Assembly (NCBI GenBank): GCA_020632535.1
Contig: JACKFJ010000002.1
Span: 120,245-184,244, forward strand
DNA from: Candidatus Omnitrophota bacterium
GTDB lineage: Bacteria > Omnitrophota > Gorgyraeia > Zapsychrales > JANLHA01
Length of the DNA stretch: 64,000 nt
Direction of reading: 5' to 3'
Both the position numbers and the translations under genes were made by a program. Under the pieces are notes generated by a model. It did not search any database, was not told where the DNA came from, and worked only from the letters and a program-made list of their open reading frames with translations. Below are positions 8,130-64,000 of the stretch, piece after piece (within the stretch, counting starts at the first letter, position 1; the number at the start of each line of letters is the position of its first letter).

Positions 8130-8200
8130 TAATTAATTTTTACGGCTCAAAGTTCCTTCGGAACTGATTCGCCTTAAAAAATTAATTATCACTCCTTGAT
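8118..8200. terminator. Perfect 24-bp palindromic stem (8118-8141 / 8177-8200) with a 35-nt loop holding an inner hairpin; a putative bidirectional terminator or RNA processing site overlapping the mutS stop codon
   Basis: ATCAAGGAGTGATAATTAATTTTT pairs perfectly with AAAAATTAATTATCACTCCTTGAT. The inner hairpin is AGTTC-CTTCG-GAACT (8151-8165). The mutS stop TGA (8127-8129) lies inside the left arm. No U-tract follows, so the terminator call is tentative. Confidence 0.4.
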
Positions 8201-8216
8201 ATAACAATTTAAATTT

Positions 8217-8341
8217 AAGAAGTAAGAACAAGTCCGAAAGCGAATTGAACGCAGCCCCGATTCTGGCCTCCTTAGGCAAATGCCTAAGGAGACATCCACC
8301 GGGGATCGTTCATTGAGATTGAGGACTTGTTCTTACTTCTT
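8217..8341. repeat. Nested inverted-repeat element between mutS and mutL; a structured RNA, regulatory leader of mutL, or MITE-like insertion
   Basis: The outer arms are a perfect 19-bp inverted repeat: AAGAAGTAAGAACAAGTCC (8217-8235) and GGACTTGTTCTTACTTCTT (8323-8341), with an 87-nt spacer. Inside is CCCCG (8255-8259) paired with CGGGG (8300-8304). Inside that is a 10-bp stem CTCCTTAGGC/GCCTAAGGAG (8268-8277 / 8282-8291) with loop AAAT. It ends 14 nt before the mutL RBS. Confidence 0.6.
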
Positions 8342-8365
8342 AGCATAACTACTAAAAGGAAATTT

Positions 8366-16100: not shown

Positions 16101-19100
16101 GAAACAATTCACCATGTGCTCGCTTAAATTCAGAAACATGCTCCTGCGAAACATACCAAGAGGTCAAAATAATGTTTTCAAACTGCTCAGGAAAGAAATC
16201 GTACGGCCTAACCGTTACTCTCTCGCCAAGAGGTTTCATTTCATCATCATCATTACGCGCAGGTGGAATCTTTCGTGGATTCCAGAGAGCGATAGGGTCT
16301 AAATCATCGTAATCATATAAAACAACCCGACCAGTAGATGTAACACCATAATTTTTAGGAAAGAAATCACCTGCAAATAATCCAATACCAATAATTTCCT
16401 TAAGAGCTTGACCATAGTCATCAACTGTCCTGCGAAGTAATTCCGTGTCTATCGTTTCTTTTAAAAAAGTATCTAGCGGTGTAATCTTTAATTGAATAAA
16501 AAGATCTTTAATAATAATCGTCTCTCCATCGATAATTATAGAATCTGGAGCTCTTTGCTTTAATTCTTCAAGCACTTCTGGTGTAAAATCGGCCGTCGCA
16601 AATCGAACATTGGCATAAATCATCGCATCAAGAAGCCTTCCCGCACGATCCATTTCATGGACTAATTGATACTTTGTTTTAACCATTGCCTTCCCGCCTC
16701 GTATATCATAATCTTCTTTCTCAGAATGATCAGCGGCAACTTTTAGAACATATGGAAAATCATTGTTAAGAGTAAACGTGACCATCACCTTCCCCTTGGT
16801 TCCCTTTGCGAAGACAAATTTGCGCTCTGGATGAGTTAATTCCTCTGCCATAGATATTGTAATTTCAACCTTAGCCGGATAAACAAGCCCAATAGCGGCC
16901 AAGAGAAAAGCTCTATCCTTACCACCGGCGATCGTTTCAATAAACTGAATGATCTCTCGATAGTGCTGAATATCAACCATAAAATTCGCGCGTGTTGAAG
17001 CAAATAAAATACCACTGACATCATTATGGTTCATGAGTAAAGCATCAACGACAATACCAGTTTTGCCTTCTGGATGCGTTAGCGCAAAAACAAGTGGTAT
17101 CGTTTGTCCTTGAGAAATGATTCGACCCATCAGATAAGCTCTTTTGTTACGATAAAAAATTGGATTTAACATCTCAATCATATCGTATCGACGAATATTA
17201 TATTTAGCCATTTCTTGCTCAATGCGCTCTTGACTAAGTCGAATATCGCGATCTAAATCTTCAAACGGAACATTAAAATGAACCCTCATAAAGATTTGGC
17301 GAAGGACACTTTCTACCGAGATTTGATCATGATCACCCGAACTTAACAGGTACGATGTATATGGCTGATTTTGCAATGTGTATTGGATAGGAGTATCTTT
17401 ATGAAGACGTTCATCTTGATATTCGACGGGAATTCCCTTGTGAAGAAAAACACGACGAAAAGCCGAATCAAAGAATTGCATTCCAATATCATCGTCGTAA
17501 TCTTGCCGCAAGCGCTTTTCATAACGAATACGAAGATCTGCCCAAACTGCTGGGTCATCCATCTGTTTACCAAAAATCTTACCAATCTTCTGAACAACAA
17601 TCGTTACGGCTTGCGAACGAGATTTATTTCGATTTCTTTGTTCTCTCTGCATACGATTCCAATCACGAGTTTCAAAAGCCTTCTTGGCAACACGATGAGC
17701 ATTCTTGAAAGCACGAAATGAAGAACGAAATTCCTTATGAATGATACGGGCACTGCGATTCACCATTTCTTCATACATCCGTTCTTTAAAAACTGCCGAT
17801 GAGGAACTCAACACAGCTGTAATTAAGAATCCGCTCTTTCCTTCCAAAATTCTAATATCATCGAAAGCATACTCTCGTAACATATCATTAAAAGTCCAAC
17901 CCAAAAGATGAGCTCTTCCCGCATAAACAACCCCTGCCAATTTCGGCAAAACAATAATTATCCGACCAGAATTCTTTAAAATCCATGAAGCCTGCTTAAT
18001 AACTTGCGCTAAAATGTCAACATAGAAAATTATACCGTTATCGTCAGGCCCTGCTCCACGAGAGATTAAAGTCTTCCCAAAATCTGTCTGCATTGTGTTT
18101 TTATCAACAACTATATGATGCAATGACCTATTAAAAACAACTAAATCCATGGAGTGTTCCTCTAGCACTTTGCTTAAAGCGGTTGCATCGCCATACACAT
18201 GTGTTATTTTCTCTACGACTACTATCTGGTCACTTGCAAATAAATCCAACATTGTCATCCTATGCATGCCGCCAAGAAGTAAACCTTGTGCTGGAGCCGA
18301 ATTAGAAGCTGAACCCACATCAACCCCATTTCCTTGAAGCGAATAAAAAGCCGCTAATGTCTCAAACAACAATACGTCTTTATCATGATCCAAATAATCG
18401 ACAATTCTTTCCTCAATTGCTGACGAGGCCAAATTTCCTTTTCGTATTGCCTCGATACGTGCGTATAACTCAAATGCCGCCGCATTATCAGTAACTTCAT
18501 GAATCTTTACTTTGCCGTCGGGCATTATCACAACAATATACTCGTATGGCTCAACACTAATGCGGGGGAAAAGAAGATACGTAGTCTCTTTATTATCACG
18601 ATCCAGCCCCATACTTCTTCCCAGTTTCAAGAAAAAGAACCGTGGCAGAGAGGAGCCTTTAATCACAATCGTTAAAATATTTCTCTTAATCTGTGTTGTA
18701 AAGTTTTCAACGGCTTCCACAGCTTCATAATCAAAAATCTGAATCGGATTTGTTTCCTTAGGCTCAGCGAGATTGGTGTCGCGCAAATCGATATTACTTT
18801 CAAAACGCACTTTAATGCGCAATTCATTAGCCTTACGTCTGACAAAACGTTCAATCAATGTTGAACGCACTACAAAATCTTTAAGCCCGCCGGGTAAAAG
18901 CAATGGCGCGTTCTCAAGAATGACAATCTTCCCACCAATTTGTCGAGCAAATTTAATTAATAATGGGGCGTCATATGCTTGACGCAACTCTGCGGCTAAT
19001 CGCACAAAAAGGTCTTGGTTATTATCATTATAAAAAGCAATCCCCACGCCATCACCTTGGCGTGTCTCAACAATCTCGCCTGTTTTTTGATCAATAACCA

Positions 19101-22100
19101 AAAGATCAGTATTAATTCTGGGATCATCCAAAGTATTTTGCTCTTTCGAAGATCGATCAACACTGAGCGTCATTTGCTTTTCATTACCTGTCTGAGGATT
19201 AACAGTCGCGAGATATCCAAAATAATCATCATTAATAAATTCACGAACAATAATCGAAGGATAAAATCGACTGGCATCAAATTGATGCCGCTGAGCGCTA
19301 TGCGCCCAATCTTTAATTCTCACCATCAAGTCCACCCACTCATCGTCAAAGTGGCGTATCCATGCTTTTTGAACCATTTCAATAATATTATCGGCGGTAG
19401 CAATTTCCGGCAGCGTTCTTTCACCAAATAAGCGCTGATCCGCCATAGAAGATAATTTCACGATCGCTGTTTTATTACCTAAGGTTTCACGATAAGCCTG
19501 TTTGATCTTTGCTTTAAATTTATCAGACAGTGTAAGCCGTCGAACTTCATCCTGAACACGACTAAACTTATTAGGAAGCTTGTCATTAAGAATATCCCCG
19601 ATAGCTTGATCAAACTCAGCAAATCTTTCCCTCCTGAAAATATTTCTTAAGACAACAAAACCAGCAGGAATTGCAACATCATAACCTTGTTCACGAAGCC
19701 TGAGAGCAACTCGATGGATCATCGCTAACCCATAGGCATTTACACCCGCAATATGTGGATCTTTAATACTTAACTCATCGAGACGAACCACATCCGCGGA
19801 CGTATCCAAACTCCGTACAAGTTTTGAATAATATTCAATCAAAACACGATCATCATCTAATCGAAATCTGCGACTTGCCGAAATTATCGATTCAATAACA
19901 AATCCGATATTCTCCTCTTCAAATGTCGAAAGTTTTAATCGTTTACGGATGACTTCTAGTCGTTCAATAATTCTTTGTGTTGTTTGAAAACGTTTTTTAG
20001 ATTTAATGACTTCAGTAAATTGCAATTCTTTCAAATCAAGCGTCGTAAGATCATAAGCGAATCCCGTGAAGTATCTTCTCTCCGCAGGAGTCGCCCTTTC
20101 AATAATTCGACGTTGTGTTATTTGCAGCCAGACAATAAAGTCTTGATATGCTTTCTGTACCTCGTCCTTCTTTCGCGTCGCCCTAATAGCCCTAAGGGCA
20201 TTATGAAGACGAATAGTTGCTACCACTTCTAGACGCTTATGAACTGTCTGCTTGCGATGCGCAATAAGATCTTCGTCGCTCTCTTGATAAAAATGCCCTA
20301 ACTCCTCAATATAATCTTCCATAGACTTTTCATATTGCACAGCCATATGCTTAATCATGTCAAGCTCATGAGATAACCAATACCGGATAAAACGAATCTG
20401 CCACCATGAATCTTGCGCCTCTTCATCAAGTCTTTCGTAAGCTTCATCAAATCGCTCTGCGACAGCAGCATTAATATCAAAATTTTTCGGTGAATAAATA
20501 CCCTTTAAGCGAGTGTCGATAATTATCTCTTGTCCATCATTCAAAAGACCGTAACCTTCTTCCGTAACCGTCGCCCAAGCAAGTCCCAAAAACGCGCTGC
20601 GACTGACCGTATTACCAGTTTGCGTAATCAATCCGCGAATTCCTGTCTTAAACAAATTACGAAACTCATTGATCGAAAGCTCTTTAGCAACAACAACTTT
20701 ATCTTTGTATGCCGCCACATCACCATTACCATTTGTCCAAACCTTAATCGGACCATAAGCAAAACCATGCGATAAAGTTTCAACAGAAACAATAGCCGAC
20801 GAAGCAGACGTGCCGTTTTGTGTAATCTCATCGACAAGATGGGTGACAATCATATTGCTATCAGCCTTCTTAGAAAAATTCACAATACATTCATGAATCG
20901 CCGCTGCTTCTTGAGTCGTGAGTAAATTTTCTTCGCTAAAAAGATCCCAAATCTTACGAACTTCGTCCCATTTCCAATGACGTGACTGCGCTCTATTCCC
21001 GGTAGGTTGAAAAACAATCGCTTCCGCAATCGGTCGCGCGATAAAGTTGGACTTGCGTAATAAATCCCCTTCCATCCGTGTTTTAAAACCAAACATGAAT
21101 AAATACATCAAGCGGGATAAATCATCGCGACGCTTTAATAATTCATCAATCAATTTTTTATCCAAACTATTTTCCATACTCAAATCAACGATCGCCGCGT
21201 AAATAAGCTTACCAAACCATCCTTTGGACAATTGATCACGTAATTGCTGGCTAAGTTCCTTATTTTCGTCATGAAGTTGTTTTTGTGCTGCAACCATACG
21301 CTCTTGCATGACATGCAAATCAAACAATAGCGGCAACCCAACGACAAGAGCCTGTTCTTCGGTAAACCAATCTAAATAATCTTCTACTTTAGTAACAAGT
21401 GCTGCGATCAACTCTTGCTCGACTTTGATCGAAGCAAAATCACTCTTCTCTAAAGTAATACTTTCTAATTCGGCAATTTCTCTTTGCAAACCTGCCAAGA
21501 TTTCGGCCTGCAATTGATCAACACGCGCTTGAAGCATGACTTCTAAACGATCACCACGACTGTCTTGATTGCCATATTCCTCTAACTGAGCGAATTGGAC
21601 TTCCAACTGTTTAATCAATACATACAAAGCGTCCAAACTTGCAACAGCGGTTATTTGGCCGACGAGTTGATCAAATTCATTTTCTAAAGCGATGATGTGC
21701 GAACGATCTTGTACATTTGATAATTGTTCTAATAAAATCTTTCCTTGTGCTAAATCATCAGCGGTCAATCCTAATTGAGCGCGCTTCTTATCCGCCTTTT
21801 GTGCATCTTGAATTGACAAAATATCGTCTAAAAGCTCATGACCACGTTTAGCATCACTTTGTCCAGCCAACCACGCCTGAACACGACCACGATATTCTTC
21901 TTGAATCACCTTTCTTAAAGAAGCCTTTTTATAAATTCGCTCATCCTGCACTAACTTCACTAAAAATGCTGTTTCAACTTTTTCAAATCTTCCTGCTAAA
22001 GCCTCCGCAGCCGCAACAAACAAGTCATTATCCTGAGCGGCTAATAAAGATTCGAGTCTTTGCGTAATTTGAGCTGATTGACTATTAGCCACCATTAACT

Positions 22101-25100
22101 GAGTCAATATTTCAATTTCATTCTTAATTCCGCGTCGTGCTTGTTGCTGCTCTTCTAATTCCTTTTTACCTGCTTTTTTATTTGTACCATTCATAATGAC
22201 CTGTAAATCACTCCATCGCTGTTGCGCTTGATCAAGATCACTTTGAATTCCCATGAGAATATTTGCCGGAAGTTCTCGCTTAATAAAGAATGACATTTGT
22301 AGCGCGATTGATCGAAAAGCCGCGTGTTCTTTTTCCGTGATCAATGCCAATAGAGCATCCCATCTTTGATCTTCAGTCCCAGCAAGCATAAAAGCCACGG
22401 TCGCACGATCAAGTCGGTTAAGATCTTCATGATTTAATAAACGAACAAAACCTTGTTTTAATTGCCCGATTTGAGCCATTTTCTTTAACCAAATCACGCG
22501 AACATAATCTACCTTAGAATTCTTTTCTAACGTTTGTGCCAAAACAGCTTCCGCTTCGTCAAGTTTTTCTGTTTCCAACAACAATGAAAGCAAATTCTCA
22601 TAAAGCTCTTCCCACATTCCATTGAAAGTTGCGGCGGTTTGCAAGTATTGCATTCCCGCAGTATGCATATCTTCATCTTGTAAAGACCCTGCTTCGCTAA
22701 CCAAAATCAATCCGTATAAGCGGTGTGCTTGAGCGGCATCTTTCAAATTGTGTTTTAATACCGTTTCGGCGTATTGCTGACCTTGCTCAACTTGTCCTAA
22801 TTTCATCATGGCTCGCGCTTTATTTAAACCATATTTGAAATCTGAATTCCCACTCGTATTCTCTGCAAGTTCCAAATGTTTCAATGCTTCTGTATTTTGA
22901 TCAAGCGTTAAGTAACGAAGTCCCATTTGATAATAAGTATCGGCAATATATTTAGCATAACGTTGTTGTAGACCCGCAGACTCGATAAATGCCAGCCCCT
23001 TATTTACGACTTCAAAGAATAGATTTGTCGATTGAACGCCGGAAATCACAATGGCTAAATTGCTGTAAAGTTTAGCGATTAAATCATACGGCAAAAACTC
23101 ATTTCTAACTTTCTTCCCACGGCCTTGTTCAATAATCCAAAGAATGCCTTTTTCATATTGAGCTAAATGTTCCATAAAGCCATCAAAGCGGCCAAGTGTT
23201 GCTAAGAATTGGATTTGATTTCCGGTTAATACCGTAAATTCGATAGGCCATTGTTCATAGGATGTTTTCTTGAGTTGCTCTTCAATAACCCAAAGACCTA
23301 AATCCAAAGCTTCGACACCACCAACACCATTAAGTTCTTGAACAGTTTTCTCAAAAATTCCAAAATTAGAACTTTTTGTACCTAAAACGTCCATTGCGGC
23401 AACGCGTTTAGCACGCTCAAATAATTCAAGGGTTATTTTACTTTCGGCAATATTGATCGACTCAATACCTGATGAGGCAAGAATACTTTGTGATTTCTTT
23501 TGCCAAATATCCAAATAATAACCATACCGGCGAACATTCTCAGCCTCTAGTTTCTCATCCAAAAGTCTTAAGCTTGGGCTGTTAAGATTGTAGTAATCTT
23601 CTTGAAGATATTTTCCTAAATCAAAATATCCTCGATATTCACTATAAGGCGTCACGACAATCATTCCGTTGCGCTTTAACCATTCTCGTATCGAAGAAAG
23701 ATTAGTAACAAAATGCTCCATTAAATTCATCCCAGACTTTTGATACAAAACATCGAACCGACCGGCAAACTCCAAATCAAGACTTTGGTCATGACGAACT
23801 ATTGATTTATGAATAAAGATAATATTTCTTATCGTGGATTCTCCCGGCAAACGAAAAGCTAAATTAACTCTTCCCTGTTTTAACTGAGAAATCGCGATAT
23901 CTTCTAAACGCACGCCCATTTGCAACAATTCATGAATTAGGAAAATTTCAATGCCACCGTTCACAAAATAAGGAATAGCACCAAATCCGCTTTTTCTTTT
24001 GTCAGCAAAATATTCGCCCAGTCTTTGCTGCCGAACTTCACCTTCATCTAAATCATTAACCCGAGCACTCATTAAGGCGTCATATAGTTTTTCTCCCGAT
24101 ACAGGAACACGATCAACAACAACCATTGTTGAAAAATCTGTAACCAAAAGAGCCGTGATAATATCCGGGCCATTGCCTAATCCAACAACCCTAACAGGTC
24201 TTCTGTTTGGATTAACCAATTTGCGCACTTCTTGAAAATAAGCTGCTAAATTGGAAGATAAAAGTTGCCCTTGACCCAATAGAGCCGATGAGGCAGATTG
24301 CATGGCATCAAGTTTTCTTTGCCGAACTTGCGCAATGATTTCATACGCTTCTTCCTGCATATCGACAATGTGATAAAGATTTAGATCTTTAGCACTGATC
24401 ATTTTCTTTGCCAAAAGAACTGGGCGGAATAACTTTTCCTGCCACGGTAACCAAAAATCAGAACCCATGAGAATCAAAGGCATAACCTTATCCCCCTTGA
24501 GCTTCTGCGTCTGAATAAGCGTTATCGTTTGAAAGAAAACATCGAGAGCCGCATTGCCGCTTGGAAAGAAAACTATGCCTTGATCGCTAAAATTAATAAT
24601 GGCAGTCTTACGAATAAATTGATGCGTAACCTTAAGATAAATATCAGCTGATCCATTCTTAACACCGTTCTCATCACCAACATAAATGAGCTTTACATTA
24701 TTTTTCTTTGACGCGGCCCTAAATCCTTCTTCAACTGCTTTACCAATTCCCGTATGACTCATGTAAATAATCGAAACACCACGTGTTGCATAGTGTCGCG
24801 CCATTGCCTTAGCCTGTTGATAAGCATTTTGATACTCCGCGTTGAAATCAGCATCGTCGCCATGATAAGGAATATCCGTCCCCAGAATTGTTATTGCTGG
24901 ACCAATTCCACTCAATAATCCTTGCACAGAAAATAACTCACGAATAATATCATCAATCCTTAAAGCCTGCTTGAAGTGCGGATTCGCTTCAATTTGTTGA
25001 TCAATCAACCGAACGATACCATCAGCATCACGAATATCATTAAGCTGGATAAGGTCATCGACGCGATGCTTTAAATAACCTCTATTGTGCAAGTCACGCA

Positions 25101-28100
25101 TTAATTTCACAAAAGACGCGTAAAATGATTGATCAAAGATTAACGGTGTTTGAAGACTGATTACGCCTAAATCTTTAAGGACAAAAAACTCAAATGCTTC
25201 ATTAAGACTACCGAATCCACCCGGCATATAAATCGCGGCCTGACTTAACTCAGCAAAAGCTACCAAACGACTTAAGAAATATTTAAATTGAAGCAATGTT
25301 GAAATGTATGGATTTGCTTCTTTTTCATGCGCAAATTGTTCTAAAATAATTTTTAACCCAATTGAAATACCGTTTGCCTCCACAGCTCCTTTATTCGCAG
25401 ATAACATCGTCCCCGGTCCACCACCCGTGATAACAGCATATGAATGTTGTGCTAACAATGCGGCGATACGCTCAGCTGCCGGAGATTCAACACGCGCAGA
25501 ACCAAAAATATTGACACCACCCTTACCCGTAAAAACATAGTTCTCCAAATGTAAAAGCAGTTCTTTAACCGCCAAAGCAACAAAATCAGGACTCATACCG
25601 ATACGCGGCAAAGTAACTTGCTGTATGTCAGAACTTGCTCTTTTGATCGGTAATGTAAGAATTTTTGCGCTTTTGCCAGTAGAAACATCAGACAAAATCC
25701 GCAATTGAACATCAAAACGGTATTGATCATCGCGATTGGATAAAGAATTTACCTTCAAATGCGTCATATATCTTCGAAGCAAATCTTCGTTTCCAGCTAC
25801 GAATTTAGCATCAAATCCTAAAATCAAAATATATTGACTTGGCAATCCTTCACGAGCTTGTTCTTGAAACTCAATCATTTTTAATGCGTCACCATTTATT
25901 CCTATATGCACCGGATCGTGCTTATATTTCTCAATAGTCAACATGTTCCCTTCCCAGCCAAGAAAGAAACGATGCATCAAATCTCTTTCATACCTCACAA
26001 ACCAAAATGGGCGTTGTAATTCAGACGCTTCAATCGAGAATTCTTCATCTGTTGTTCTTGATGCAAATGTCGCAAAAACAAAACCTTTTCCTTGTTCAAT
26101 TTGCCAGCCTTCATATCTTTTTAAATTGATAATTTGCCGCATCAAAGGTGAATAATGATAGGCAACAGATTTGATATCATCGCCATGTAATAAAGCATTA
26201 CCCAACTCTTTATGTAACCAGCGATAAATCAAATATCCAATACTGCCGACGAAAAGCAATATCCCAATCGCCCAAAGACCCATTGTCGCGTTAATCAGCA
26301 GGGTTGTTCCAGCTATTGCATTCATCGAGAGAAGAAGAACACCCAAACCGATAAGCAGTTGCATAAAATATTTTGCTTTACTTAATCGTGGGAATCCAGA
26401 CATGTCAACACCGGCAGCCTCAAAAACTTGTGCAAAAACCCCAATAAACCGCGGCGTTCTCAAACCATCAGTTAAATTTTTTGATCCTCGATCTAGTACC
26501 AGCTTAAGTCCATTAATTTCATCAATATTCTGACCTCCTAGAATCATCAAAGATAAAACACTCTCCGGACTTAAAACTTGGAAATCTTTGAGAAACTTCC
26601 AGTCAATCAATTGAACATCGATGAGAAGCCCTTGCGATGAAAACCTCACAAGAATATTATGCAAATTAATATGACCGTGTAAAAACCAATCGCCATCCTG
26701 ATACCGCAAAACATGCTCAATCCGATGAAGAATCATATCTTTTTCGTTTTGTGTCAGCTTTTTCTTCTGATTCTCGACAATATCACCCAAAACTTGATAC
26801 CCATAAACACGCAAATCTAACTCATAATAATGAGTGGTATCATTAATTGCGAAGAATGTGGGAACAGCTCCGAAAAGATCTTGATCAATTAACTTTTGAA
26901 TTGTGGCGATTGTGGTGCGGGGTCCAATGAGTTTTTGAATAATGCGCCATTTTTGCTTAGGATGTTCAAAAACAGCCTGCTTCCGATCAAAAGATAAACT
27001 ATTCAAATCCATATTCTTATCGTGCCTTAATCCAGTAATACCTTTGACGGCTAAGTATTCACGAATCGCGGCCATTTGCTGATTCGTCCAAGGTGCTGTC
27101 ATAACCGGCGAGCTGACTTTTTGTCCTTCGACAATACTCAAAGACGTGCGATCTTTCTTGTGAACAAAAACTTTCGAAGGAACATTAAACAATTTTGCTA
27201 ACACACCCCGATACATAGCGGCGGGTCGATAAGCGCCATTTTCCCACTGTTCAATTATTCTGGCTAATGATTCACTTAAAATACGCTTTTGCTGCTCGCT
27301 TATTTGGTCGAACAGTGGACCTTGAATTATGTTAATCATCTGTCGTGCCATTTCATTCGGAGTCAAACCACGACCCATTCTTAACAATCGAATCTTATCT
27401 TTAATCGTGCCTTCCTTTATCAAGTGTTCTTTGGTCATGCCAGCTAAAAGCACATAAGCATCCACTCCGAGGGCAGCTGCTAAACGTGGCCAAATTGCAC
27501 CAGAATCATCAACAGGCTCACCTTTGCTCAATTTTAATATTCGCTTGAATGTTACTCCGGAAATTTCGGCCAACTGTAGAAGACTTAAGCCAGCAATATC
27601 GCGCAACTCTTGCAAACGAACTGGAAGCAATCGCTCTCTTTCTTGCAAACGTCGAATTACTGCTTGTTCTTTAATACTTTCAATAAATTCCCATTTTACT
27701 TGTTCTCGTTTTTTACCCTTACGCAAATACATTGGTTCGACACCCATCATTATGCTCCAGTCACGCAAAGACGATACATAACTTTCATCAATCGGCTGTG
27801 TGACAACCTTACTCCACTTAGCAAGTTGATTAACAAGAACTACGTCGGATCTACCCAGTGGCTGACCGATTTGATCCCATGTTAACGAACCATAAATGAT
27901 ATTATAAAGATCTTTCAAATATCGAATTCTTTGCGCGGCAGCAGCCATTGTTTCTATACCTTCGAGACCTGATAATCTGATAAGAACATGAACAATCTTT
28001 TTTTGTTTTTTAACTTCAAATTGTCCAATAAAATTTACAAGTGACTGCGGATGAATCATCTGAGTTCTTAATGGCATTGTTCCGCTGATTGCCCATTGAT

Positions 28101-31100
28101 ATTGTGTCGTCCAACGACCATCAACCTGAACAATTGCCGCGTGACTTATCAGTGGAAATCCTAACATTTCAAGCCATGCCAAAACTCGATTCACCTTTTG
28201 CGGTGAATTGATTGTGCCCTTTTCCTGCAGCCTTACCAAAATCTCTGTAGCAGTGATAGGTTTGTTTACAAAATATTCCATGCTTAATAGAAGTTTATAT
28301 ATTTTAAAGCCATCTTCTAAAATAAATTCTGAAAGAAATTCATCATCGACAATTGAGTTCCCTTCCATCACCGATTCATAACCAAATTTAACGAATTCCG
28401 CTAAATCAACATTTCCTGCTCTAGTCAAAGGAGTCAAATTTGGCAAATCGCGCAAATTGTGATCTCCGATACCATTCCAATTAAAAGTTTCAAACACTGA
28501 CGAAGAGGCTAAAGCAACGTGGAATATTTCGTCTTCGGTAGCTTCTAATAATTCTGCTAATCGTTGACGTCGTTTCATCGGAACATTTTGTGTTCCTCTG
28601 ATCCAATTTCCAAATTGTGTCGCAGTCACACCAAGATCGGTCGCCATAACATCTTTAATTCTCCCAATGTTTAATCGCAACAGGTCGATCCGCTCACCAT
28701 CCGTTGCTTGACGATCTAAAGCAGCTTTTCTGCTTAATCCGTCTGTGAGAAGACTTATAACAGCATCTTTCCCTTTGTGTCCGCGAGCTCTGGCAATTAA
28801 CGCTAACACTTTAGGATCTTTAATATTTCTAACATCGTCTTGTTTTGCATGAACAGTTGGAAATGGCTCAACAAATGCAACTTGATTAGAAATCGATGTT
28901 TCAGAAACTTTTTGTTTAGCAAGCCACTCAACAAGAATTCTTGCCTTTAATTCGTTATTCCCTCTTGCAAAAACATAAGCCATCGCATCGATATATTTTG
29001 CCGACGGGACCAGAAGATCTTCGCTCCATTTGATAACAATCTTTCTGGAAACTTTAAGCGCAGGATCTAATGCTATGTTGTTATAAGTTAAGCCTTCAAC
29101 CGTTCGATACAAATCTAAACGCTGACCGAATGTGCGCATAGCCAAAGCTTCTGTCCGCGATAATCCGGTCAACAGAACATAAACATCCTGCTCAAGAATT
29201 TTTGCAAGTTTTTGCCATAACATCGTGTCTTCGATAAAATAAATCTTGTCCGCGGTCTCTAATCGATAAATAATATCTTCATCCACATCCACCATCTTTG
29301 CCAAATCTTGACGAGTTAAATTACGGCTTCGTCGGAAGAACGCGAGACGCTGACCACGGCTCTCTTCTTGCTCTTGAACCGACACTATTTTAACTGGCAA
29401 CTTCGCGATCTCGTCACCAGCCCATAGCATAAATGACCCAACCCCTAAAAATGTTCCAATCTCTTTAATGGTACTTTCTTCGGGGAAGCTCACACCCCTT
29501 AACCATGTAGCAACACGCTGATTGATTGTTCTGCGAATTGCTGGACTCATAGCATCACCTTTATATAATTTCTTTACTCGCCATATAATCCTGATTCTCT
29601 GAGCAACAGCCTTGGCGACTTGCTGTAAAAACAATGAATTCGTACGCATCTTTTCCCAGTTATAAATAATCTCTTGATTGACAAAAATCCTCCTCCAGCT
29701 CTTCTGCATTTCTACTGGCCACGTTTCAAATCCATCAATATCCCATTGCGACTTCTCTAAACTTGGAACAAACCATTGCCCGTTCTCACTTACAAGAGTC
29801 AATCCAGCTATTTGCAACCATTCCAACCCTGCCTGAAGAGTGACTTTTGAATAAATAACGCTTGTGCGATATGGCAATTTAATCGCCTCATGTATTAACG
29901 CAATCATCCGCAATTTGATTTTGTCATTAAGCCAATTGGGCTGATAATCTTCAATCATTTTGTAAAACATAAGTAAAAAGTCATTGAGACTATTTGGTCG
30001 AATATATGTCATTTTCTTAATCTCGCTTAAAAGATGACGGAAAAGATCGTCCTGCTTTTGTTCGGCAAGAAAGATAAGAATTTTAGCTTCGGCTAATTTG
30101 ATCGATTGCCCACCGACCCCATTAGCGATCAAGCGAGGAATTTCAATCATAATCTGTTGCGATGTCCAGCGGCTCTTGCTAACAGCTAATTCACGATAAA
30201 CATAAAGTAATTCAGTAATAAACTTTAATAAGTACATTTCTTCATCAAACAACTGACCATTCAAAGTCGATTGATAAGCTCTCATCGTACTTCTATATTC
30301 TTTTCTCGCCTTCGCGTATAAATAATCCTTCAAAGCAATAGGGTCTCGAAGTTCTAATAAATCCTCAGCAATCTTTGTCAGCCGACCATTACCCTGTAGC
30401 ACAATTTCATCAATCGCTGAAGATGCGCTAACAACATCATCCGATGACTCCGCGCTAAGAACAAACCACTGTTCATTTTCTCTCACGAGAGCAAATCCAG
30501 TTCTTCCCAACCAACCTAAACCTACTTCAAGCATCCCTTTTGAAGAAATAACACTCGTACGATATGGCATTTTGATCGCTTCATGTATCAAGGCAATCAT
30601 CTGAGATTTGATTTTGCTATTGAGCCAATTTGGCTGATAGTCTTCAATCATTCCAAAAAACATAAGTAAAAAGTCATTAAGACTATTAGGCCGAGAATAT
30701 GTTATTTTTTTAATCTCGTTTAGAAGATGACGAAAAAGATCTCGCTGTTCTTGTTCCGCAAGAAAGATGAGGATTTTAGCTTCAGCTAATTGAATCGACT
30801 GCCCGCCGGTTCCGTTGATAATTAAGCGAGGAATCTCAATCATAATCTGTTGGGACGTCCAGCGACTCTTGTTCTCAGATAATTCACGATAAATATTAAG
30901 TAATTCCGTAACAAATTTTAATAAAAACGTCTCTTCGTCGATTGGTTGGCCATTTAAAGCAGACCGATAAGCTTTCTTTGCATTTTTATAAACTTTAGCG
31001 GCTTCTCTATTTAAATAATCCTTTAAAGCAACTAAATCCCTAACATCTTCTGGTTCCAACGCGTCAATGATAGCCTGTGGATATGGTTTACGCATTGGCG

Positions 31101-34100
31101 CGGCACTGATCACCCAATGTCTAATCTGTGCTTTGCTAACGTTTCCGATCGCAGCAAGCTCTTCAAATGTAAATCCTTTTTCTTTGCGCAAAAGATTAAA
31201 CCGTTCATTTTGTGAGCTTGCTTCTAATGCGACTACTCTCGGTTGATTCGTCAATAATGTAATGACATTGGTATCACGTCCCCGAGCAATAAACGCCAAA
31301 ACTTTTATATATTGTAATAAATTTAAGTCATAATTATGTTCGGCCAGTGATGGAAACGGCTCAATGCTGCTTAACTCCCCAGAAGGCAAAAGAACTTCTT
31401 GTTTACTAAATAGATCCTTGTCAGATGCGCCCAACTTTTTCTTTAAGCGTTGAATCATTTCCGGTGATGGGAGATTCTGATCCGAAATCCACATCCCAAC
31501 AATAGAAGGAGACACGTCAATGGCTTTGGCTAATTGACCTCTTGTTAATCCGCCAATTAACCGCAACAAATCAAGACGTTGGCCAAAAGTCCTCCGCACA
31601 AGAGCCTGCTCCAATGGCAATCCGGTAAGAATTTCACTAACCGAACGATGAAGAACTTTAGCTATTTTTCCCCACATCCATGGATTATCTAAAAAGTGCT
31701 GTGCTGATCTTTTTTCTAAACGATACAGCTGCATTTCGCCTAGTTCAGGAATAAGCGCTTCAACTTGTGGTCTTGTAAACCCAAGCAATTTACGATAATA
31801 TTCAACTCTCTGACCAATACTTGTTAAATTCTCATTCTCCTTCTCAATTGCCGAAGAACCAACTGAATGCTTTTGTGTGAAAGGAATAATTTTTCCGGAA
31901 TGATTATTCTTTTCCCATGCAAAGAATTCATCTTCACTCATAAATAATAATGCCAGCTTCTTTGTTGCTGTACGTTCAAAAACTCCTTTAATATTCTGCA
32001 TATAGGCATGCTGATCAGCTAATTTCAAATTACGATTAACAAAATCCGCAACTTCACTGCTCAATACAACAACCAATGTCATAAGATCAGCATTAAATTC
32101 TAAAGAAACAAGCGGATCTCTGCGATGATTGATGCGCATAATAAAATGAACTTTGTGCCCATATCTATGTCTCGGATATTCAACATATAAAGAAACTTCA
32201 CCTTCCGTATACCACTGCAACTCAATAATTCTCTTGACCGAATTAGTAAACTTACTAATACTCCAATCCCCAACATCAAAAGCCGTAACCCTAATACTAT
32301 TATTCGCGTATACTATTGTTCTTTGCCGAGCATTACGTGACTTACTTTCATTTTGCCATTTTTGCGATAAATTATGAAGCGCTAACCGCGCGTTGGATAT
32401 AGGTATCCCCGGAGTAAAATCTACGACTTCATCTACTTTCAAACTGCGAAGCTGCAAAACTGCGACATGACTGTTGATAGACATTTTATGTTGCATTTCA
32501 ATATAAACTTTTCGCAATAACCGCGCGTAATCAGAATAAAGAGCAATACCAAATCTTTCAAAAGCTACAAATAAATTCTCAATTTCCGCCAACTTATCTG
32601 TTAATCGTTTAGACGTGCGTAAACGATATGGCTGTGCTAAATTCTCAAACGCTTCCTCCGAAAGCACACCGGCGCCATAAGCAAAGAGAGCATATTCCAA
32701 AATATGTGTAAGAACTTTTAAATAAACAACCGCGGCTCTAACATTTTGGTCAAACAATGGCGCGCGCGATAATAACAATGTATTAATATACAATTGATCA
32801 TCTAATTCATCGTAAACAACAAGATTTCTTCCTAACTGCGCAAATTTAAAAAGTTTTAAGTCGCTAACAGAATTGCCTTGTTTAAGATGCAAAGCTCTCA
32901 TCGCTCGGGTGAGGAATTCCATCTGCCCTTGTTCATTGCTCTTCTGATATTTACGACCAAATGGCATTACCAATTCCCCGGGGAAAAGAACACGCGTATA
33001 AAGCGCGGATGAGGCGACTTGCGACACCTGTTTAAGAATTTTACGAACATCATTCTCTGAAATATCTGTAGAAAATTCCAACATTAACACAACTTTGACA
33101 AATTTCTTGTGCTGATTAATCGACACGACCTTAATTTCTTTAATATTAATCCGAGAATCAAGCTCCCACAGAGAACGTAAAAGCGCGTTCAAAGATCCAA
33201 CTCGATTTGATATCTTAACTTCAAAATCCATCAAAAGATTATTACTAGTGGATTCACCCACGCGAACATCGGGAATACGTCCGATTGCTTCTATCACCGT
33301 TGCTAAAACAGTATGATCCAGATCACCATCGAGAAAGAATCGCACTTTAAAACCGTCTTCGTAACTTGCTTCAAAAGCATGAATATCTAATTGATTGGCA
33401 GATAAAATAGACGTAATCGGCATCAAGATGCCCGGTCGGTCATAGGAACCACTTACCGTCAAAACCCATTCCTGAACATCTACAAACGGAGCTGTCGCAT
33501 TTGCTTGACGACGGGTCCATTGCCTAGAAAATTTACTCCGTAAACCTGAAACACTCAACTTTTCATGAATAACTTTCGCTTCAACAAGGCCTCTCCCAAC
33601 AGCTTCAAAGAAAAGTTTTAAATTTCTGTTATATTTAAACGGCAACTCCGGAAAGATTCCTAAAATGGATTCGAGGCGTAAATCTTTGCTTCGATCTCCA
33701 ACCCAACTAATAACTTTTTGTTCAACCAAAAGCATGCGTCCAGCAAACTCCAATATTTCACCTAAATCCTCAAGATTGATAAGGCCCAAAGCAAAAGCCA
33801 GATAAAGTTCTTCTAAAGTCTCATCTGTTTTAAGCATCAAGGTATCGCTCCACTCCTTGAGAACTCTAATTTTTTGTCCATTACGGAATCGATCAGCAGC
33901 TAGCTCTAAAGCAGCTTTACCGCTATCGCTTTGTCTTTTTCTTTTTTCATTATCCCAAAACACAATACGAGCCATGAGCTTCGCTCGAAGCGTTGTCGAA
34001 TTATGCATAATCTTTGACCAATTGATTACACCGAACTTGCGTGGGAAGTAAAGCGTATTTCCTGTTTTTAAAAATTTATTATCCCCAAAACGTTGCAAAG

Positions 34101-37100
34101 CCCCGGAAGCATGAACGCGACCTTCCTCAACAGACAATTCAACAAAATACGCACCGCTATATTCACCATTTAATCGATCAATACGCCAATATGCAGCCGC
34201 ATCCGCGGGAATCGCGCCATAATCAAGAATAAGAGGATAAATAAATTTTTCATTTTCACTAATCACGTTGCTTAAGCCAAATCCATAACGCGGCGAGTAT
34301 GAATGTACGGTTGGGTTGTAAATAAGTACCACAATTTTGCCATCAAAATACTGTCTCAAATGGACAAAATCATGCGCCAGATCATCAGTCGGAATAGAGT
34401 GCGGAAATTTATCAAATCTCTGATTTTTTAACGCGGGATCTTTATGTGCCGAAAATTCAAAATGCGCAATCCCCTGACCCATAATATAAATTTCATAGCT
34501 AAAACTGTTCATAACAATAATATCAAATGGCCGATTTTCATCATCACGCATGGGGAATTGCCAACCTTCATATCCAAACCGTCTTTGAAAATCAAGATCA
34601 TGATAGTACAAGCCCGGGGCGCTGCGCACTTGCTTGCGGCCAACATTATTCTTCGTCAAATTAGATAGTAAACTATTGATCTGTTCTAACACTTGCTCAT
34701 CTTCAACAACAATCATGATCCCAAATAAATCTTTAATTTCAGATAAAGTTAAATGACGGCGAGTTAATTTATTGGCTAAAGACGCATGAGTTTTTAAGCG
34801 GTTATGATAACTGACGCTCTCCTGAGAAACACCATTGTCTTTTAAATACTTGCGCATCTTACGCATAATATGCTCGATATATCTTTCCTGTTGCTTTTGC
34901 GTAAATCCATGTGTTAACTCACGAATAGCCGCGACAGTACGATGATATTCTTCGGGAGCAACTACTGCAAAAGCCGTATCTTGCAAAATACGCGCAATAC
35001 TGGGAATTCTAAAATAATTCGCTAAAGTTACATAAATATGAGTAGCTTTTCTGGCGTAATATTGCCTTTCTGTAATCGTCATAGCCACAGAACTTTCAAG
35101 TGTCGCCAACATTTCAGCGAAGCCAAATAATAATCCTTGCGAATCATTAATATTCATTACAAACCATGTCATCCATGTTGCCAAAGCCCGGCTATGCAAT
35201 AAGTTGCCATCCTTATCCATTCTCGGGAAATATATAAGTTTACGAATTTTATCAAAATGTTGGGCTTGCTCTGATAGATGATGTAACGAATAAGGGAATT
35301 TGATCACACTGTGAATATCAAATAACCACGCTGCGGCAAGAGTTTCTTCACGCACGGCAGTTGCTTTACTCGCACCCCATTCGTTTAATAAATCGACAAC
35401 CCTTTGCGTATATACAAACTTGCTCGCGGCAAGGTGCTGGCGCGCGAATTCTTTTGCTTCTTCGACAATAACGGAACTCGACGATTGATTTCGACGATCA
35501 ACTTCCTTATTAAGAATATTCTGTAAAGCAGTTAAATAATCTGCCCAATCTCTAGGATTTATCGTTCGTGAAAATTCTGGATATTCTTCATTATCACTTG
35601 CAACTTCATAAAGTGCGGCCGACATTCTAAAATCCGAAGAAACCCAATCTTGTCTTGTTGTAAATTCCGCCCAACGATTAAGAACAGGTTGATCCAAGTT
35701 TTGGAAAAATCCTGCCCAAAATAACTTAACCATATCAAACTGGCTTGGAAGTTTGATTTGCGGTGCATAATAACTCAACTTTTTGTTCGCTTGATTTATT
35801 GCTAAAAGCGCTAACTTAATCTGGGTTATTAGGCTTGAATTATTTGTTCTAAATCCACCTAATTCATTTTCAGCTTCCCGCGTTTCTTCCCGATCAGATA
35901 TCAATCCGCTGACCGTCAAATCCTGACCATGAAATGTCTCAAGATATAAGGCGTGATTATGCATAAGCGCGATTTGACGCGCCACCTGCGCCCCGAAGTA
36001 TAAAAATAATTCCTGCGTAGTACGAATAACAGGCTCGCCAATTGACTGCAGCGCGCGCGACAAATAATGAATCAATACTTCTAAATACGGATCGTTTTCT
36101 GCAATTTGTAAAATCTTGGATAAACGATACGGCGTGTGAGTTAAATTAAAAACTAATACAGGAGGATTATCACTATCCCATCCTTGCTCGCGAATCGAAT
36201 CAAAGCGACCATTAGCATGATTTGGCAAAGTTTTTAAATCCCGATAACCAAGATTACGCATAAACGCCCGACGTTCTTTTTGGGTAAGCATATTCCAAGA
36301 ACGCCCAGATAAACGTTCATTTCTTAAAACTAAACCTTCATAATCACGTCCCCCCAAGCTCTTTTTATATGACAAATCTTCCTCATATTCATTTTGACCA
36401 GAACCCTTGACGCCAACCCAGAATAATTTATTACCAATTAAATGCAAATAATATGCCTGACGACCATTAGCCACAAATCGATACATATTATTAATAAATT
36501 CTTGACGAGCCCGATAATCAACAAACATCACCTGAACAGGAATTCCAGCCTTCAATTTCTTTGCCGCCATCGCAACAGTTGCAATCTTAAAGGAAGTTAT
36601 ATTGTCTATAAATTGCGTTCCACCTATCAACTCTAATGCTTCACGATCAACACCAACAAGCGGACCAACCTGCTCATTTTTTTCTGTCAAAATTTGATGA
36701 AATACTGGCCGTAAGGAACGATCCCAATACAAAAGCATCTTTAATTCTTTATTAAACAATTTTTCTAAAACAATGTACTCTTTTACACCTATATAAGCTG
36801 CTAGATATGAATTAGCTTTATTTAACAAATTATTCCGGAAATGAATTTGCGGGGTAATATGATCCGTAACTTCATCTGGCACGAGTAAAGCAATAAGATT
36901 TTGCGCGAGATCTTCAAGGGCGATAAGGTAAGAATTAAAATTGGATTGTTTATTTGTTGCGAGGAGGATCCAAGGCTGACCATCAACTTCGGTCAAAACT
37001 GCAAAACCGCTTGTCAACGGACCCGCACGCAAATGTCCTGCGGCAATTGTTTCCTGTAACAATTGCAATCTTTGTCTTTGACCAATTCTCGTCAAAAATT

Positions 37101-40100
37101 CATAAACTTCTTTCATGGCAACACTATCCTCATATCTCATGACCCACGGCGAAGCATCCAATTTACCACCATGAATCAATTGCTTGGCTTCATTCACAAC
37201 GGCCGCGATAGCAAAACCTGCACGCGGCAAGGCATGTTCTTTAATCGGGCTAGAACTTTGATTCTGACTCATATCATCATCCTGACCCATTTGTTTTTGT
37301 ACCGCTTCAATTGTGTTATTTAACTGCCACTTTGTCTCAACTTGTTGCGGCGAAACTAATGAATAAAAACCACTCCCATTCCATCGTTTTTGCTTATATG
37401 TGCTTTGTAAAATATGATTCAATACCGGTCGCGCGTCGCGACCATTAGAACCCATAAGTCCAATCACCTTAACAAGCCGTTCTTGCGCCTGATAGGAATG
37501 TTCATTCTGTAATTCAGCAATAATAAGAGATAAAGCAATCGAGCCGTTGAGAGCAAGAGCACGGCTTAACCAAGCGCGTTCAATTTCGGAAGATTCCGCA
37601 CGAAGGAAGAATGCTAACACTGCTTTTTGTACATCCTCATTACCTGATGCTAAAACTTTAGAAACATTGCGCAAGAGATCTTCTTGCCACAAAATATCTT
37701 GTGTTTCTTTTAATGTGTTAACTGAATAATTAGTATCTTGAATCTCGCTCCTAATTGAATCTATTTCCTTCATGAATTGAATTTGTTCTCTGACTTCAAT
37801 AATTCTGCTGTAATGTTGTAAAGTTTTTAGCAAAAATTCTGTCTGGTTCTGTAGCGCAACACTCTCTAGAGATTTAGCCCCTAATATACTCGCGATAATT
37901 GCAAAAAGTTCTTGTCCCGGATGCAAGTAAGATTCACTAACACTTGTAGACGCGACAGTGTCAATACTCAGATTCTTATTTGCGGCAAAAATGCCAGTAG
38001 CGTTTGGTTTTATTTCTGGCGCAGGTTGTGGATGAGGCTGTTGATCAAACTGTGGCTTAGGCTGCTTTGGTTGTGGAACAGGTTGATTCTCCAGCTTTTC
38101 GAGTTCATTTTCAAAATGCTTAATCCAGAGAGGAAGATCTTTCTTAATTTGAGGATATTTCACGGCAAGTCCTACACTATTTAAAATAGTACCCAAAACA
38201 CGCAATGTTTCAATAACTATAATCTGGAGCCTTTGATTTTGTTCCTGAGTTTCAAATTGAAGCTGCGCGCTAAAATAATCATAAAAGAACTGCTCAAGCG
38301 CGAAAACTATGTCTGCCATCAAATGCGCGTCACTTCTCACGGCTTCACTATGAATGAAAATAACGCCACGCGGCTGACCAAGAAATCCATCTGAAACATA
38401 CAATGAATGATTCAACACCGAAGGATGCTCAAGCGGCAAATTAAATAATAGTCGCAAGTTATTGCGTATAGCAACTTGAAATCTTGAACTCAACACAATC
38501 TCACGTTCAACAGGGTTAAGATTTACAACGATAATTTGAAATAATTTGACAAGTCTTCTTGGATCAACAACAACTGTTTTATTTTCATCGATCGTGGAAT
38601 CTTTCGCGGCAAAACCAATAATAGCACCAAGAAAATCTCGTCGCGTAATCGCGCTGGAAGCGACAGGATATTGTGCAATAGCAGAATTCGCGTCAATTGT
38701 AATTTTGCTGACTTCAACCTGACCCGAGACAAATACCTGATAACGCAAAGGCTCTGTCTTTGTTGCATCGCGCCAAAAGACAAGAACCCGATCTCCGTCG
38801 ACTTGAATATTAATTTTATTGGACAAAGTAACAGCACTAGGTTCATCCCAACGATGATTTCTTAAAACCGCAGCCGGCCTAATAAGGCGCACCGTACTAT
38901 CCACTTTATTAATTTCAAATTCGGCGGACCACAATCCATCTTCTTCCCAAATACGAATATCAAACGCTCCATGCCGCAACCAATCAAATTGTGTAAACAA
39001 ACCACTTTGCTGGTCATTCTTGTATCTGGAATCGATGCTATATACTGCATTTGGAGCAATATATTTATAAACCATCCGCATCAAACCATAATTTCTTGTA
39101 TTGTGTATTTCAACCATCGAAAATGAATTTTGCCGTGCAAAATTAACTAAATATGCAAATATCGTACGACCCATGCCCTGTAAATTATAACTATAAGAAG
39201 TCGCACTAAAAGCAATATAAAGTACGTCAATTTGATCTTCTACAAGACTCAACACCAGATTGCTGTCTGTAATCACGTTCCCATTAAGCCAGAGGCCAAA
39301 ACTTACTTCCTGTGAATCATCCTTTTTATAAACAGCATCCAGATTCTGTTTAAGAGTAAATGGCTGGCCATTAACAATGTTAACCAATTTAATTTTTTGC
39401 GGTAGAATGTCTTCGTGCCAATTTCGCTGAATCGGAGATGAAGCACGAGTCTTACCTTGTTTGTCTTCAACCACCTTAATCATGATACGTTCAAAATTTG
39501 AACGAATTAATCCACGAGCCGCAATTTTATTAGCATTAATATCACCCTCGTAAGAAATATACGAAACACCGACTCTCTCAGCTAACCCCTTGAGTAACCA
39601 TTGCGCTACGACCAACCGACCCGTCGACTTCCAAGTTTCACCCCCCAATAGACGCTCAACCCGGCCTAAAATCATTTCATGAGATGGAAAAGCCGTAGCA
39701 TAATTTACTGCCTGCCCCCAGATTGAAATTCCACTGCCAAAAAGCATATAAAAATTTGTATTAGTTTCTCCCTCATGATTAAACCAGACGTCAAAGGTGC
39801 GAACGCCATAAACTCCAAATTCATTTAATTTTTCGCTTAAAAATTGACCCTCAGAAGTCTGTTCAAGATTAAGTTCAACTGAACTCATTAAAGGATTCTT
39901 TGTAATTACAAAAATATCGATATCTTCGCCATAAGGCATTTGCGTCTCAGCTGGATAACTTGACCAAAATTCAACTAAACTGCCACCAATCGTGATATTT
40001 TGAATTTCAATATCTTGGAAATGCCGCTGCAAAATAATTGGTAAATATTCTTGTAAAATGATAAGAACGTGTAGCAAATGATTTCTTTTAATCTCATGAA

Positions 40101-63954: not shown

Positions 63955-64000
63955 AACAGCCGCATTGATTCCTTCAACAGAACCCGCGTTTAAGAAATTA

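Follow-up and report, generated by a model that had tools for sequence, protein, structure and literature searches.

Ten XRE-type helix-turn-helix modules in a membrane-stapled giant protein of Omnitrophota and a candidate junction peptide at the borders of its units

Giant, multi-domain open reading frames (ORFs) rich in transmembrane (TM) helices were described in Omnitrophota by West-Roberts et al. 2023 (10.1101/2023.11.21.568195), Seymour et al. 2023 (PMC10066038), and Nielsen and Lui 2026 (10.64898/2026.06.07.730766). Such giants typically carry domains in repeated copies (10.64898/2026.06.07.730766), and SecA_DEAD and/or C39/S8 peptidase domains are common in them, but not universal (West-Roberts et al., 10.1101/2023.11.21.568195). 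The giant proteins are a recognised puzzle, both in the fate of the chain, which may stay whole or be cut into products, and in the role of their many unannotated stretches; a cleavage-site map is lacking, as stated by West-Roberts et al. (10.1101/2023.11.21.568195). Here, we analysed a 64,000-nucleotide stretch of the genome of a Candidatus Omnitrophota bacterium (contig JACKFJ010000002.1, hereafter the window), in which a giant ORF on the minus strand carries a block of ten XRE-type helix-turn-helix (HTH) modules with three winged-helix-like (wHTH) modules interleaved. We read this block as the cytoplasmic, DNA-binding regulatory part of a membrane-stapled giant protein, from which it would be released at junctions with the peptide ASSA, and give this reading a probability of about one half. 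Residue numbers follow from window positions x as (63954-x)/3+1. The ORF and the block are located as follows:

10156..63954, minus strand: giant ORF of 17,932 amino acids (aa) with no stop codon
27145..31839, minus strand: whole block of HTH and wHTH modules, aa 10706–12270, recognised by Pfam, internal homology, and profiles

With more than 10,000 aa and many TM helices, the ORF has the hallmarks of Omnitrophota giant proteins. It resembles the "multi-enzyme metabolic cluster" class of Nielsen and Lui (10.64898/2026.06.07.730766) in phylum, size, abundance of TM helices, starch-synthase and GT1 domains, repeated domains, and divergent sequence. Unlike many Omnitrophota giants, it gave no SecA_DEAD or C39/S8 peptidase match with Pfam at E≤0.01 over the 17,932 aa in the window, outside which the N-terminus may lie. 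The giant protein is a very divergent addition to this described class, and its HTH content has database-labelled parallels. The terms "helix-turn-helix" and "HTH" are absent from the main texts of West-Roberts et al., Seymour et al., and Nielsen and Lui, and these texts do not treat the recurrent regulatory-looking content of the giants that is presented below, a wHTH-X-A-B cassette and XRE arrays of 4–11 modules.

An earlier note on this DNA had placed about eight XRE-type HTH modules at positions 26950–32300, a span that corresponds to aa 10552–12335 of one single minus-strand ORF and contains no second ORF of at least 100 aa on either strand. The estimate was a fair one, as ten modules were found in aa 10706–12270, seven of them firm and three (X2, X3, and B3) divergent. 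They are listed below with their E-values and, where modelled, with the predicted local distance difference test (pLDDT) values:

31597..31839, minus strand: HTH module A1, aa 10706–10786; phmmer match to A2 at 6e-11, no Pfam match alone
31375..31596, minus strand: HTH module B1, aa 10787–10860; above the Pfam gathering scores of HTH_3 (35.4 vs. 23 bits) and HTH_31 (29.8 vs. 27)
31000..31230, minus strand: HTH module C1, aa 10909–10985; HTH_3 E=0.0044, HTH_19 E=0.0065, colinear with C2
29380..29634, minus strand: divergent HTH module X2, aa 11441–11525; hhalign of X profile against HTH profile, low-confidence model
29137..29379, minus strand: HTH module A2, aa 11526–11606; HTH_19 4.8e-5, five helices, block pLDDT mostly 60–87
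28900..29136, minus strand: HTH module B2, aa 11607–11685; phmmer match to B1 at 7e-9, five helices in the model
28489..28719, minus strand: HTH module C2, aa 11746–11822; HTH_31 0.0045, phmmer match to B1 at 7e-6, pLDDT 77–86
27700..27963, minus strand: divergent HTH module X3, aa 11998–12085; X profile, low-confidence model
27415..27645, minus strand: HTH module A3, aa 12104–12180; HTH_31 8e-4, pLDDT 81–87, five helices
27145..27414, minus strand: HTH module B3, aa 12181–12270; HTH_19 0.049 over profile positions 3–63, pLDDT mostly 81–93

The profile scan proposed in the earlier note recognised HTH domains: aa 10001–15000 matched HTH_31 with E=5.6e-19 (68.6 bits), HTH_3 with 7.3e-16, and HTH_19 with 4.5e-15. 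The ten candidate modules were delimited by eye and then scanned singly against Pfam. B1 exceeded the gathering scores, C1, A2, C2, and A3 gave sub-threshold matches (E from 5e-5 to 5e-3), B3 was marginal, and no match was obtained for A1, B2, X2, and X3. By phmmer or hhalign, the modules below threshold were connected with B1, A2, or the HTH profile (A1 to A2, B1 to B2, and B1 to C2 with the E-values listed above, A2 to A3 with 9e-4), except C1 and B3, which rest on their weak Pfam matches together with colinear alignment or the structural model. An alignment of seven modules displayed the classic XRE pattern G.R[LI]..LR...GLT..[QE]LA...V......W......P.....LA..L. The modules form three paralogous units, A-B-spacer-C, X-A-B-spacer-C, and X-A-B, which are colinear with 34% and 26% identity and have a conserved spacer between B and C (EPFP...KVLA.IAR). 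A profile of eight X-module sequences was aligned by hhalign with the seven-module HTH profile over 62 colinear columns (88% probability, E=3e-6). A profile search of the whole giant found no more HTH copies outside aa 10706–12270. Eight of the ten modules have a net positive charge, and B3 carries a helical insertion of about 20 residues.

Structure prediction agreed with these assignments. AlphaFold models were obtained for aa 11441–11822 (model 1, mean pLDDT 64) and, with six homologues, for aa 11850–12275 (model 2, mean pLDDT 69.6, predicted template modelling score 0.67). A2, B2, C2, A3, and B3 were folded into five-helix bundles (pLDDT 60–93), the lambda-repressor-like fold, and X2 and X3 were modelled at low confidence only. 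In a Foldseek comparison of both models with the PDB, all compact matches were of XRE type (SinR, 434 Cro, P22 c2, C.AhdI, C.BclI, HipB, CapH, and DdrO), with template modelling scores of 0.8–0.89 and a root-mean-square deviation of 1.3–2.3 Å over 60–69 residues. A sequence search of the PDB with the block gave marginal matches only (8tac DBP48, E=0.12). The modules were thereby confirmed as XRE/Cro-C1-type HTH domains. They share the sequence signature and five-helix fold of this family (HTH_3 PF01381, HTH_31 PF13560, and HTH_19 PF12844). In contrast to usual XRE proteins, ten copies stand in series within a giant ORF, without the usual dimerisation or sensor domain; taken singly, most copies have diverged too far to reach the Pfam thresholds, and the X modules and B3 bear insertions.

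Between the HTH modules lie two long repeats and a further winged-helix-like module:

30415..30999, minus strand: repeat D1, aa 10986–11180; helical part and winged-helix-like end (aa 11119–11166), winged-helix (WH) profile E=1.9e-15
29746..30339, minus strand: repeat D2, aa 11206–11403; winged-helix-like end at aa 11349–11401, WH profile 1.3e-22, conserved in the homologues P0004, P0010, and P0017
28072..28260, minus strand: winged-helix-like module WH3, aa 11899–11961; WH profile 1e-19

D1 and D2 are a tandem pair of about 200 residues with 73% protein identity and, over 300 nt, 79% DNA identity (29766–30065 and 30459–30758, period 693 nt), and from this tandem repeat we infer that the array grew by segmental duplication. 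In model 2, WH3 was predicted with moderate confidence as two helices followed by a beta-hairpin, and its weak Foldseek matches to PadR and Fur folds agree with the winged-helix-like reading. Of the earlier description of HTH modules alternating with other modules and with TM clusters, the first half held, the other modules being winged-helix-like and helical; the second did not, since the hydropathy scan found no TM helix inside the array (aa 10706–12270). An apparent TM segment at aa 11924–11942 was rejected as an amphipathic helix of WH3.

The tetrapeptide ASSA was the most over-represented 4-mer in the giant ORF, with 13 occurrences against 0.41 expected (Poisson 1e-15). The extended pattern [ASG]SS[AS][ILVA] had 24 sites, whereas 1000 shuffles gave 0.6 on average and never more than 4. 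All ASSA-type sites fell within aa 3760–16771 (window 13639–52677), and the segments between them were protein-sized (175–1,400 aa). The Ala and Ser codons varied from site to site; the constraint therefore acts on the peptide and not on the DNA, and ASSA was rejected as a DNA-level element. Sites at aa 15383 and 15982 frame a complete AceK match (aa 15402–15976, Pfam E=6e-70 and 3e-59), and sites at aa 9491 and 10314 frame a RelA/SpoT-ACT unit, in which the Pfam RelA/SpoT-like and ACT matches span aa 9719–10230. Three further sites lie in soluble linkers of the HTH block and are listed here after the RelA/SpoT-ACT unit:

33016..35472, minus strand: RelA/SpoT-like and ACT unit, aa 9495–10313; Pfam RelA_SpoT 26.8 bits and ACT_4 24.9 bits, both just under the cut-off
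31846..31860, minus strand: junction peptide GSSAI, aa 10699–10703, directly ahead of unit 1
30412..30426, minus strand: junction peptide ASSAI, aa 11177–11181, between D1 and D2
28495..28509, minus strand: junction peptide ASSSV, aa 11816–11820, after unit 2, in the disordered tail of model 1 (pLDDT<50)

The three peptides bracket two units, aa 10703–11177 and 11181–11816, that consist of HTH and wHTH modules only. A junction peptide thus recurs at unit borders, as expected of a polyprotein, which suggests that ASSA[ILV] is a candidate polyprotein cleavage or junction site. We tentatively propose that the giant ORF may be a true bacterial polyprotein, with ASSA[ILV] as a putative protease recognition site yielding about 20 protein-sized products, the two bracketed units among them as free multi-HTH regulators; this stronger claim is possible, although we hold it with less confidence than the general reading of the block. 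The junction motif was not described by West-Roberts et al. or by Nielsen and Lui. If the proposal is true, the sites are the first map of cleavage positions in a giant protein of this phylum, and the ASSA[ILV] borders make the cleavage question of giant proteins testable by proteomics.

Membrane topology was assessed with a Kyte-Doolittle hydropathy scan and the positive-inside rule only. The scan of the ORF gave 34 segments at a lenient threshold, and about 26 of these are plausible TM helices arranged in 7 clusters, which supports the description of the host ORF as a giant polytopic membrane protein, already proposed in the earlier note. The ORF is a head-to-tail chain of protein-sized units, among them glycogen-synthase-like, RelA/SpoT-like, LOG, AceK, methyltransferase-like, and GNAT-like ones, and is stapled to the membrane by the clusters of TM helices. 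The array lies, along with the RelA/SpoT-like unit, within a stretch of about 5,800 aa between two hairpins:

43822..43950, minus strand: TM hairpin, aa 6669–6711, upstream boundary of the soluble stretch
26227..26367, minus strand: TM hairpin, aa 12530–12576, downstream boundary of the soluble stretch

Both hairpins have Lys or Arg on their flanks and none in their loops of 5–9 residues. The second hairpin is followed by the LOG unit and then by the unit of the ATP-dependent AceK. The array most likely faces the cytoplasm, as the earlier note had considered for a membrane-tethered giant, because of this distribution of charges, the presence of the nucleoside triphosphate (NTP)-dependent RelA/SpoT-like unit between the same hairpins, and the position of LOG and AceK beyond a two-helix hairpin. 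The TM helix closest to the array is located about 260 residues past B3 as a part of the second hairpin, and for units 1 and 2 the distance to any TM helix exceeds 700 residues. In ToxR/CadC, RodZ, and factors released by intramembrane proteolysis, a single HTH stands immediately beside a single TM helix. The giant resembles RodZ and ToxR/CadC in having a membrane-tethered cytoplasmic HTH. It differs from them in its ten HTH modules, hundreds to thousands of residues away from hairpin anchors, and the only link in sequence is a weak match of A2 to the RodZ-type HTH_25 (E=0.019).

Relatives of the block were found by an exhaustive HMMER search (aa 10700–11830 against 1.84 billion representatives), which yielded 76 proteins at E≤1e-3, of which 10 reached E≤1e-10. 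Other protein homologue searches with aa 10700–12300, aa 11372–11690, and an eight-sequence cassette alignment returned nothing, and scans of genome and metagenome contigs revealed no close relatives of the HTH block. Three of the relatives are Omnitrophota giants with HTH modules: P0008 (MFH1359812.1, 7,503 aa, 11 modules between TM helices), P0014 (MGB2705810.1, 3,130 aa, 5 modules), and P0017 (PIQ84199.1, 6,229 aa). At NCBI, P0008 and P0014 are named "helix-turn-helix domain-containing protein, partial". These giants share with the present one the HTH subfamily, the linker "...LLTG..E.AL...G.R", and the tandem arrangement in TM-bearing giants; they differ in sequence (27–30% identity), in the number and order of modules, and in their junction strings. 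Smaller proteins (P0002, P0006, P0007, P0009, and P0029) contain 4–9 modules of the same subtype. Head-to-tail HTH series also occur in P0001 (1,002 aa) and P0005 (703 aa), with 8 matched stretches each; unlike the block, these are soluble proteins of ordinary size with canonical, near-identical repeats and without wHTH or X modules. The matches to the insect proteins P0003 and P0061 (LEIRASSPQAN repeats) were discarded as spurious.

A colinear wHTH-X-A-B cassette with 15–17 invariant columns was common to P0004, P0010, P0017, P0019, P0023, P0024, and P0037. P0004 is encoded by a 528-aa gene on a 152-kb contig and overlaps its neighbours by ATGA and GTGA; a tblastn comparison of the giant with this locus gave 1e-21. 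A metagenome scan with the cassette detected two more stand-alone ORFs of about 540–580 aa (L083 and L084), as well as a further cassette embedded in an ORF that stays open over at least 4,604 aa. Thus, the cassette exists both free and fused. The stand-alone versions (P0004, P0023, P0037, L083, and L084) have the same colinear order of winged helix, X, A, and B as the giant and are distinguished from it as separate genes of about 520–580 aa, that of P0004 being translationally coupled to its neighbours. The occurrence of the cassette as a free-standing gene supports the view that the giant strings together proteins that were once separate.

Several minor observations concern these relatives. 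The gene of P0004 is situated in a run of about 30 co-directional, tightly packed small genes (locus L081, 1–21587, 52.6% G+C), mostly without Pfam matches, and this run may be an unfused counterpart of a giant gene. Other giants appear to have recurring junction strings of their own. In P0008, these are "D.ASL" and "LSANIFTP" with a TM helix and a basic cluster behind, in a manner resembling a sorting signal; the string of P0017, "S..LFA..P...WWLLPL", likewise leads into a TM helix, and that of P0002 is "DAAM". In the present giant, SSSAI at aa 3760 similarly precedes a TM helix (aa 3776–3794) and the basic RARRDAAR.

We suppose that the HTH block is the putative DNA-binding, regulatory part of a cytoplasm-facing assembly. 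The two ASSA-bounded units would correspond to the stand-alone wHTH-X-A-B proteins of about 530–580 aa and are predicted to act, most likely, as multi-HTH transcription-factor-like proteins on extended or repeated DNA sites. They would be freed by cleavage at the ASSA junctions, i.e., by polyprotein processing. We favour DNA-binding regulators because the modules retain the canonical fold and signature and are mostly basic, a second type of DNA-binding fold stands alongside, and free-standing equivalents exist. Release at ASSA is favoured over intramembrane proteolysis because no TM helix adjoins the modules and the conserved peptide is located in soluble linkers.

Several points weigh against this reading. 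The ORF, the N-terminus of which may fall outside the window, yielded no Pfam match to a protease domain over its 17,932 aa. ASSA was not enriched in the Omnitrophota giants L003–L018, P0008, P0014, and P0017; it was rejected as a general feature of Omnitrophota giants and therefore could be a lineage-specific linker. B1 is the sole module above the Pfam cut-off by itself, and the residues of the recognition helix are not conserved among the homologues. The cytoplasmic placement is derived from hydropathy and the positive-inside rule, and six of the homologues (P0006, P0009, P0010, P0014, P0029, and P0035, with 2–9 HTH modules) start with a signal-peptide-like hydrophobic segment, which, if functional, would place their HTH arrays outside the cytoplasm.

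The same absence of a protease domain is what one would expect if the chain remains uncut. In that case, the HTH block would bind DNA as a part of the membrane-stapled giant, either holding chromosomal DNA at a membrane-bound enzyme assembly or controlling transcription at the membrane in the manner of ToxR/CadC. The array is indeed covalently continuous with the TM hairpins, and the arrangement agrees with the interpretation of giants with TM helices only as membrane-anchored proteins with a cytoplasmic bulk by Nielsen and Lui (10.64898/2026.06.07.730766). However, a strict ASSA[ILV] at unit borders, under selection at the peptide level, is hard to explain as a passive linker, and the nearest TM helices are 260 to >4,000 residues away from the modules. 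We consider an uncut chain unlikely.

The divergence of the modules could also be explained by a loss or absence of DNA binding. The cytoplasmic XRE-type HTH of RodZ binds MreB, and the HTH folds of the giant could similarly be adaptors or scaffolds for protein-protein contacts, or degenerate relics. The nine of ten modules below the Pfam thresholds individually, the HTH_25 match of A2, and the habit of giants to repeat domains are consistent with this, as are the invariant columns across homologues, which correspond to core and turn residues and not to the recognition helix. On the other hand, the XRE signature and the five-helix fold have been kept, most modules are basic, and winged-helix-like modules, a second DNA-binding fold type, accompany them. 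In our opinion, a role as adaptors or relics is doubtful for modules with these properties.

The homologues with a signal-peptide-like start ahead of their HTH arrays raise the question of export, with the block being delivered to a host or prey cell within an effector polyprotein and acting on foreign DNA. Omnitrophota are thought to be predatory or episymbiotic (10.1101/2023.11.21.568195; PMC10066038), and most giant-protein domains were predicted to be extracellular by West-Roberts et al., who themselves called some of these localisations highly unlikely (10.1101/2023.11.21.568195). In this ORF, however, a cytoplasmic position is favoured by the positive-inside pattern and by the NTP-dependent enzymes, and no secretion signal was visible in the window, so export of the block is very improbable. 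Release of HTH fragments by regulated intramembrane proteolysis, suggested in the earlier note and natural enough for a membrane protein, has hardly any chance of being correct, since no TM helix stands beside any HTH module, the anchors are two-helix hairpins (the nearest one, as noted, about 260 residues after B3), the candidate cut sites are in soluble linkers, and S2P, rhomboid, or site-1 protease domains were not found in the ORF or the window.

The genomic context agrees with the source lineage. MutS encoded beside the giant ORF was 83% identical to that of the Candidatus Omnitrophota metagenome-assembled genome SJ432 (JADLGJ01), and the next best matches (53–67% identity) were mostly from Omnitrophota too. 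The other flanking genes in the window were read as MutL, a coiled-coil protein, and small membrane proteins. In seven Omnitrophota loci (L003, L004, L005, L006, L010, L011, and L018), mutS is followed by a long convergent ORF running off the locus, as in window 5571–10153; in two of them, where the ORFs were inspected, mutL was confirmed after mutS. This synteny indicates that the position of the giant gene is conserved. The syntenic giants themselves were almost unalignable, including their C-terminal parts, and too divergent for comparison: only one weak match (L005, 28% identity) was obtained when the giant was compared by tblastn with 80 mutS loci.

At the other end, the 45 in-frame bases from the first ATG to the window end (63955–64000) contain no stop codon. 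The ORF is open in frame to the window edge; therefore, the true N-terminus may lie beyond it. No convincing ribosome-binding site was seen at the usual distance from the first ATG, and translation may begin upstream of the window. The N-terminal part (aa 1–1788, 58590–63954) is beta-rich, has no TM helix, ASSA site, or Pfam match, and includes a Gly-rich, porin-like stretch at about aa 330–480. It precedes the first TM helix (aa 1789–1807), which has Lys or Arg on its C-terminal side, and could be an extracytoplasmic head.

Elsewhere in the giant ORF, Pfam detected starch-synthase and GT1 domains at aa ~4760–5290 (a glycogen-synthase-like unit), LOG/SLOG at aa 12815–12973, an alpha/beta hydrolase at aa 16428–16517, and tetratricopeptide repeats, as well as weak TIM-barrel-like, GNAT, and methyltransferase matches. 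One more unit was read from the sequence directly downstream of the array:

26455..27087, minus strand: kinase-like stretch HGHINLHNILV...IDW, aa 12290–12500; weak Pfam match to EcKL, E=0.12

This stretch sits between B3 and the TM hairpin; His replaces the usual catalytic Asp of the HGD motif, and it may be a pseudokinase. Two GNAT-like units at aa 7343–8432 (38659–41928) each start with ...WHE[SD]ILP... and end with YPVASSA. The second of them is preceded by a nucleotidyltransferase-like part, and the pair looks like a further internal duplication.

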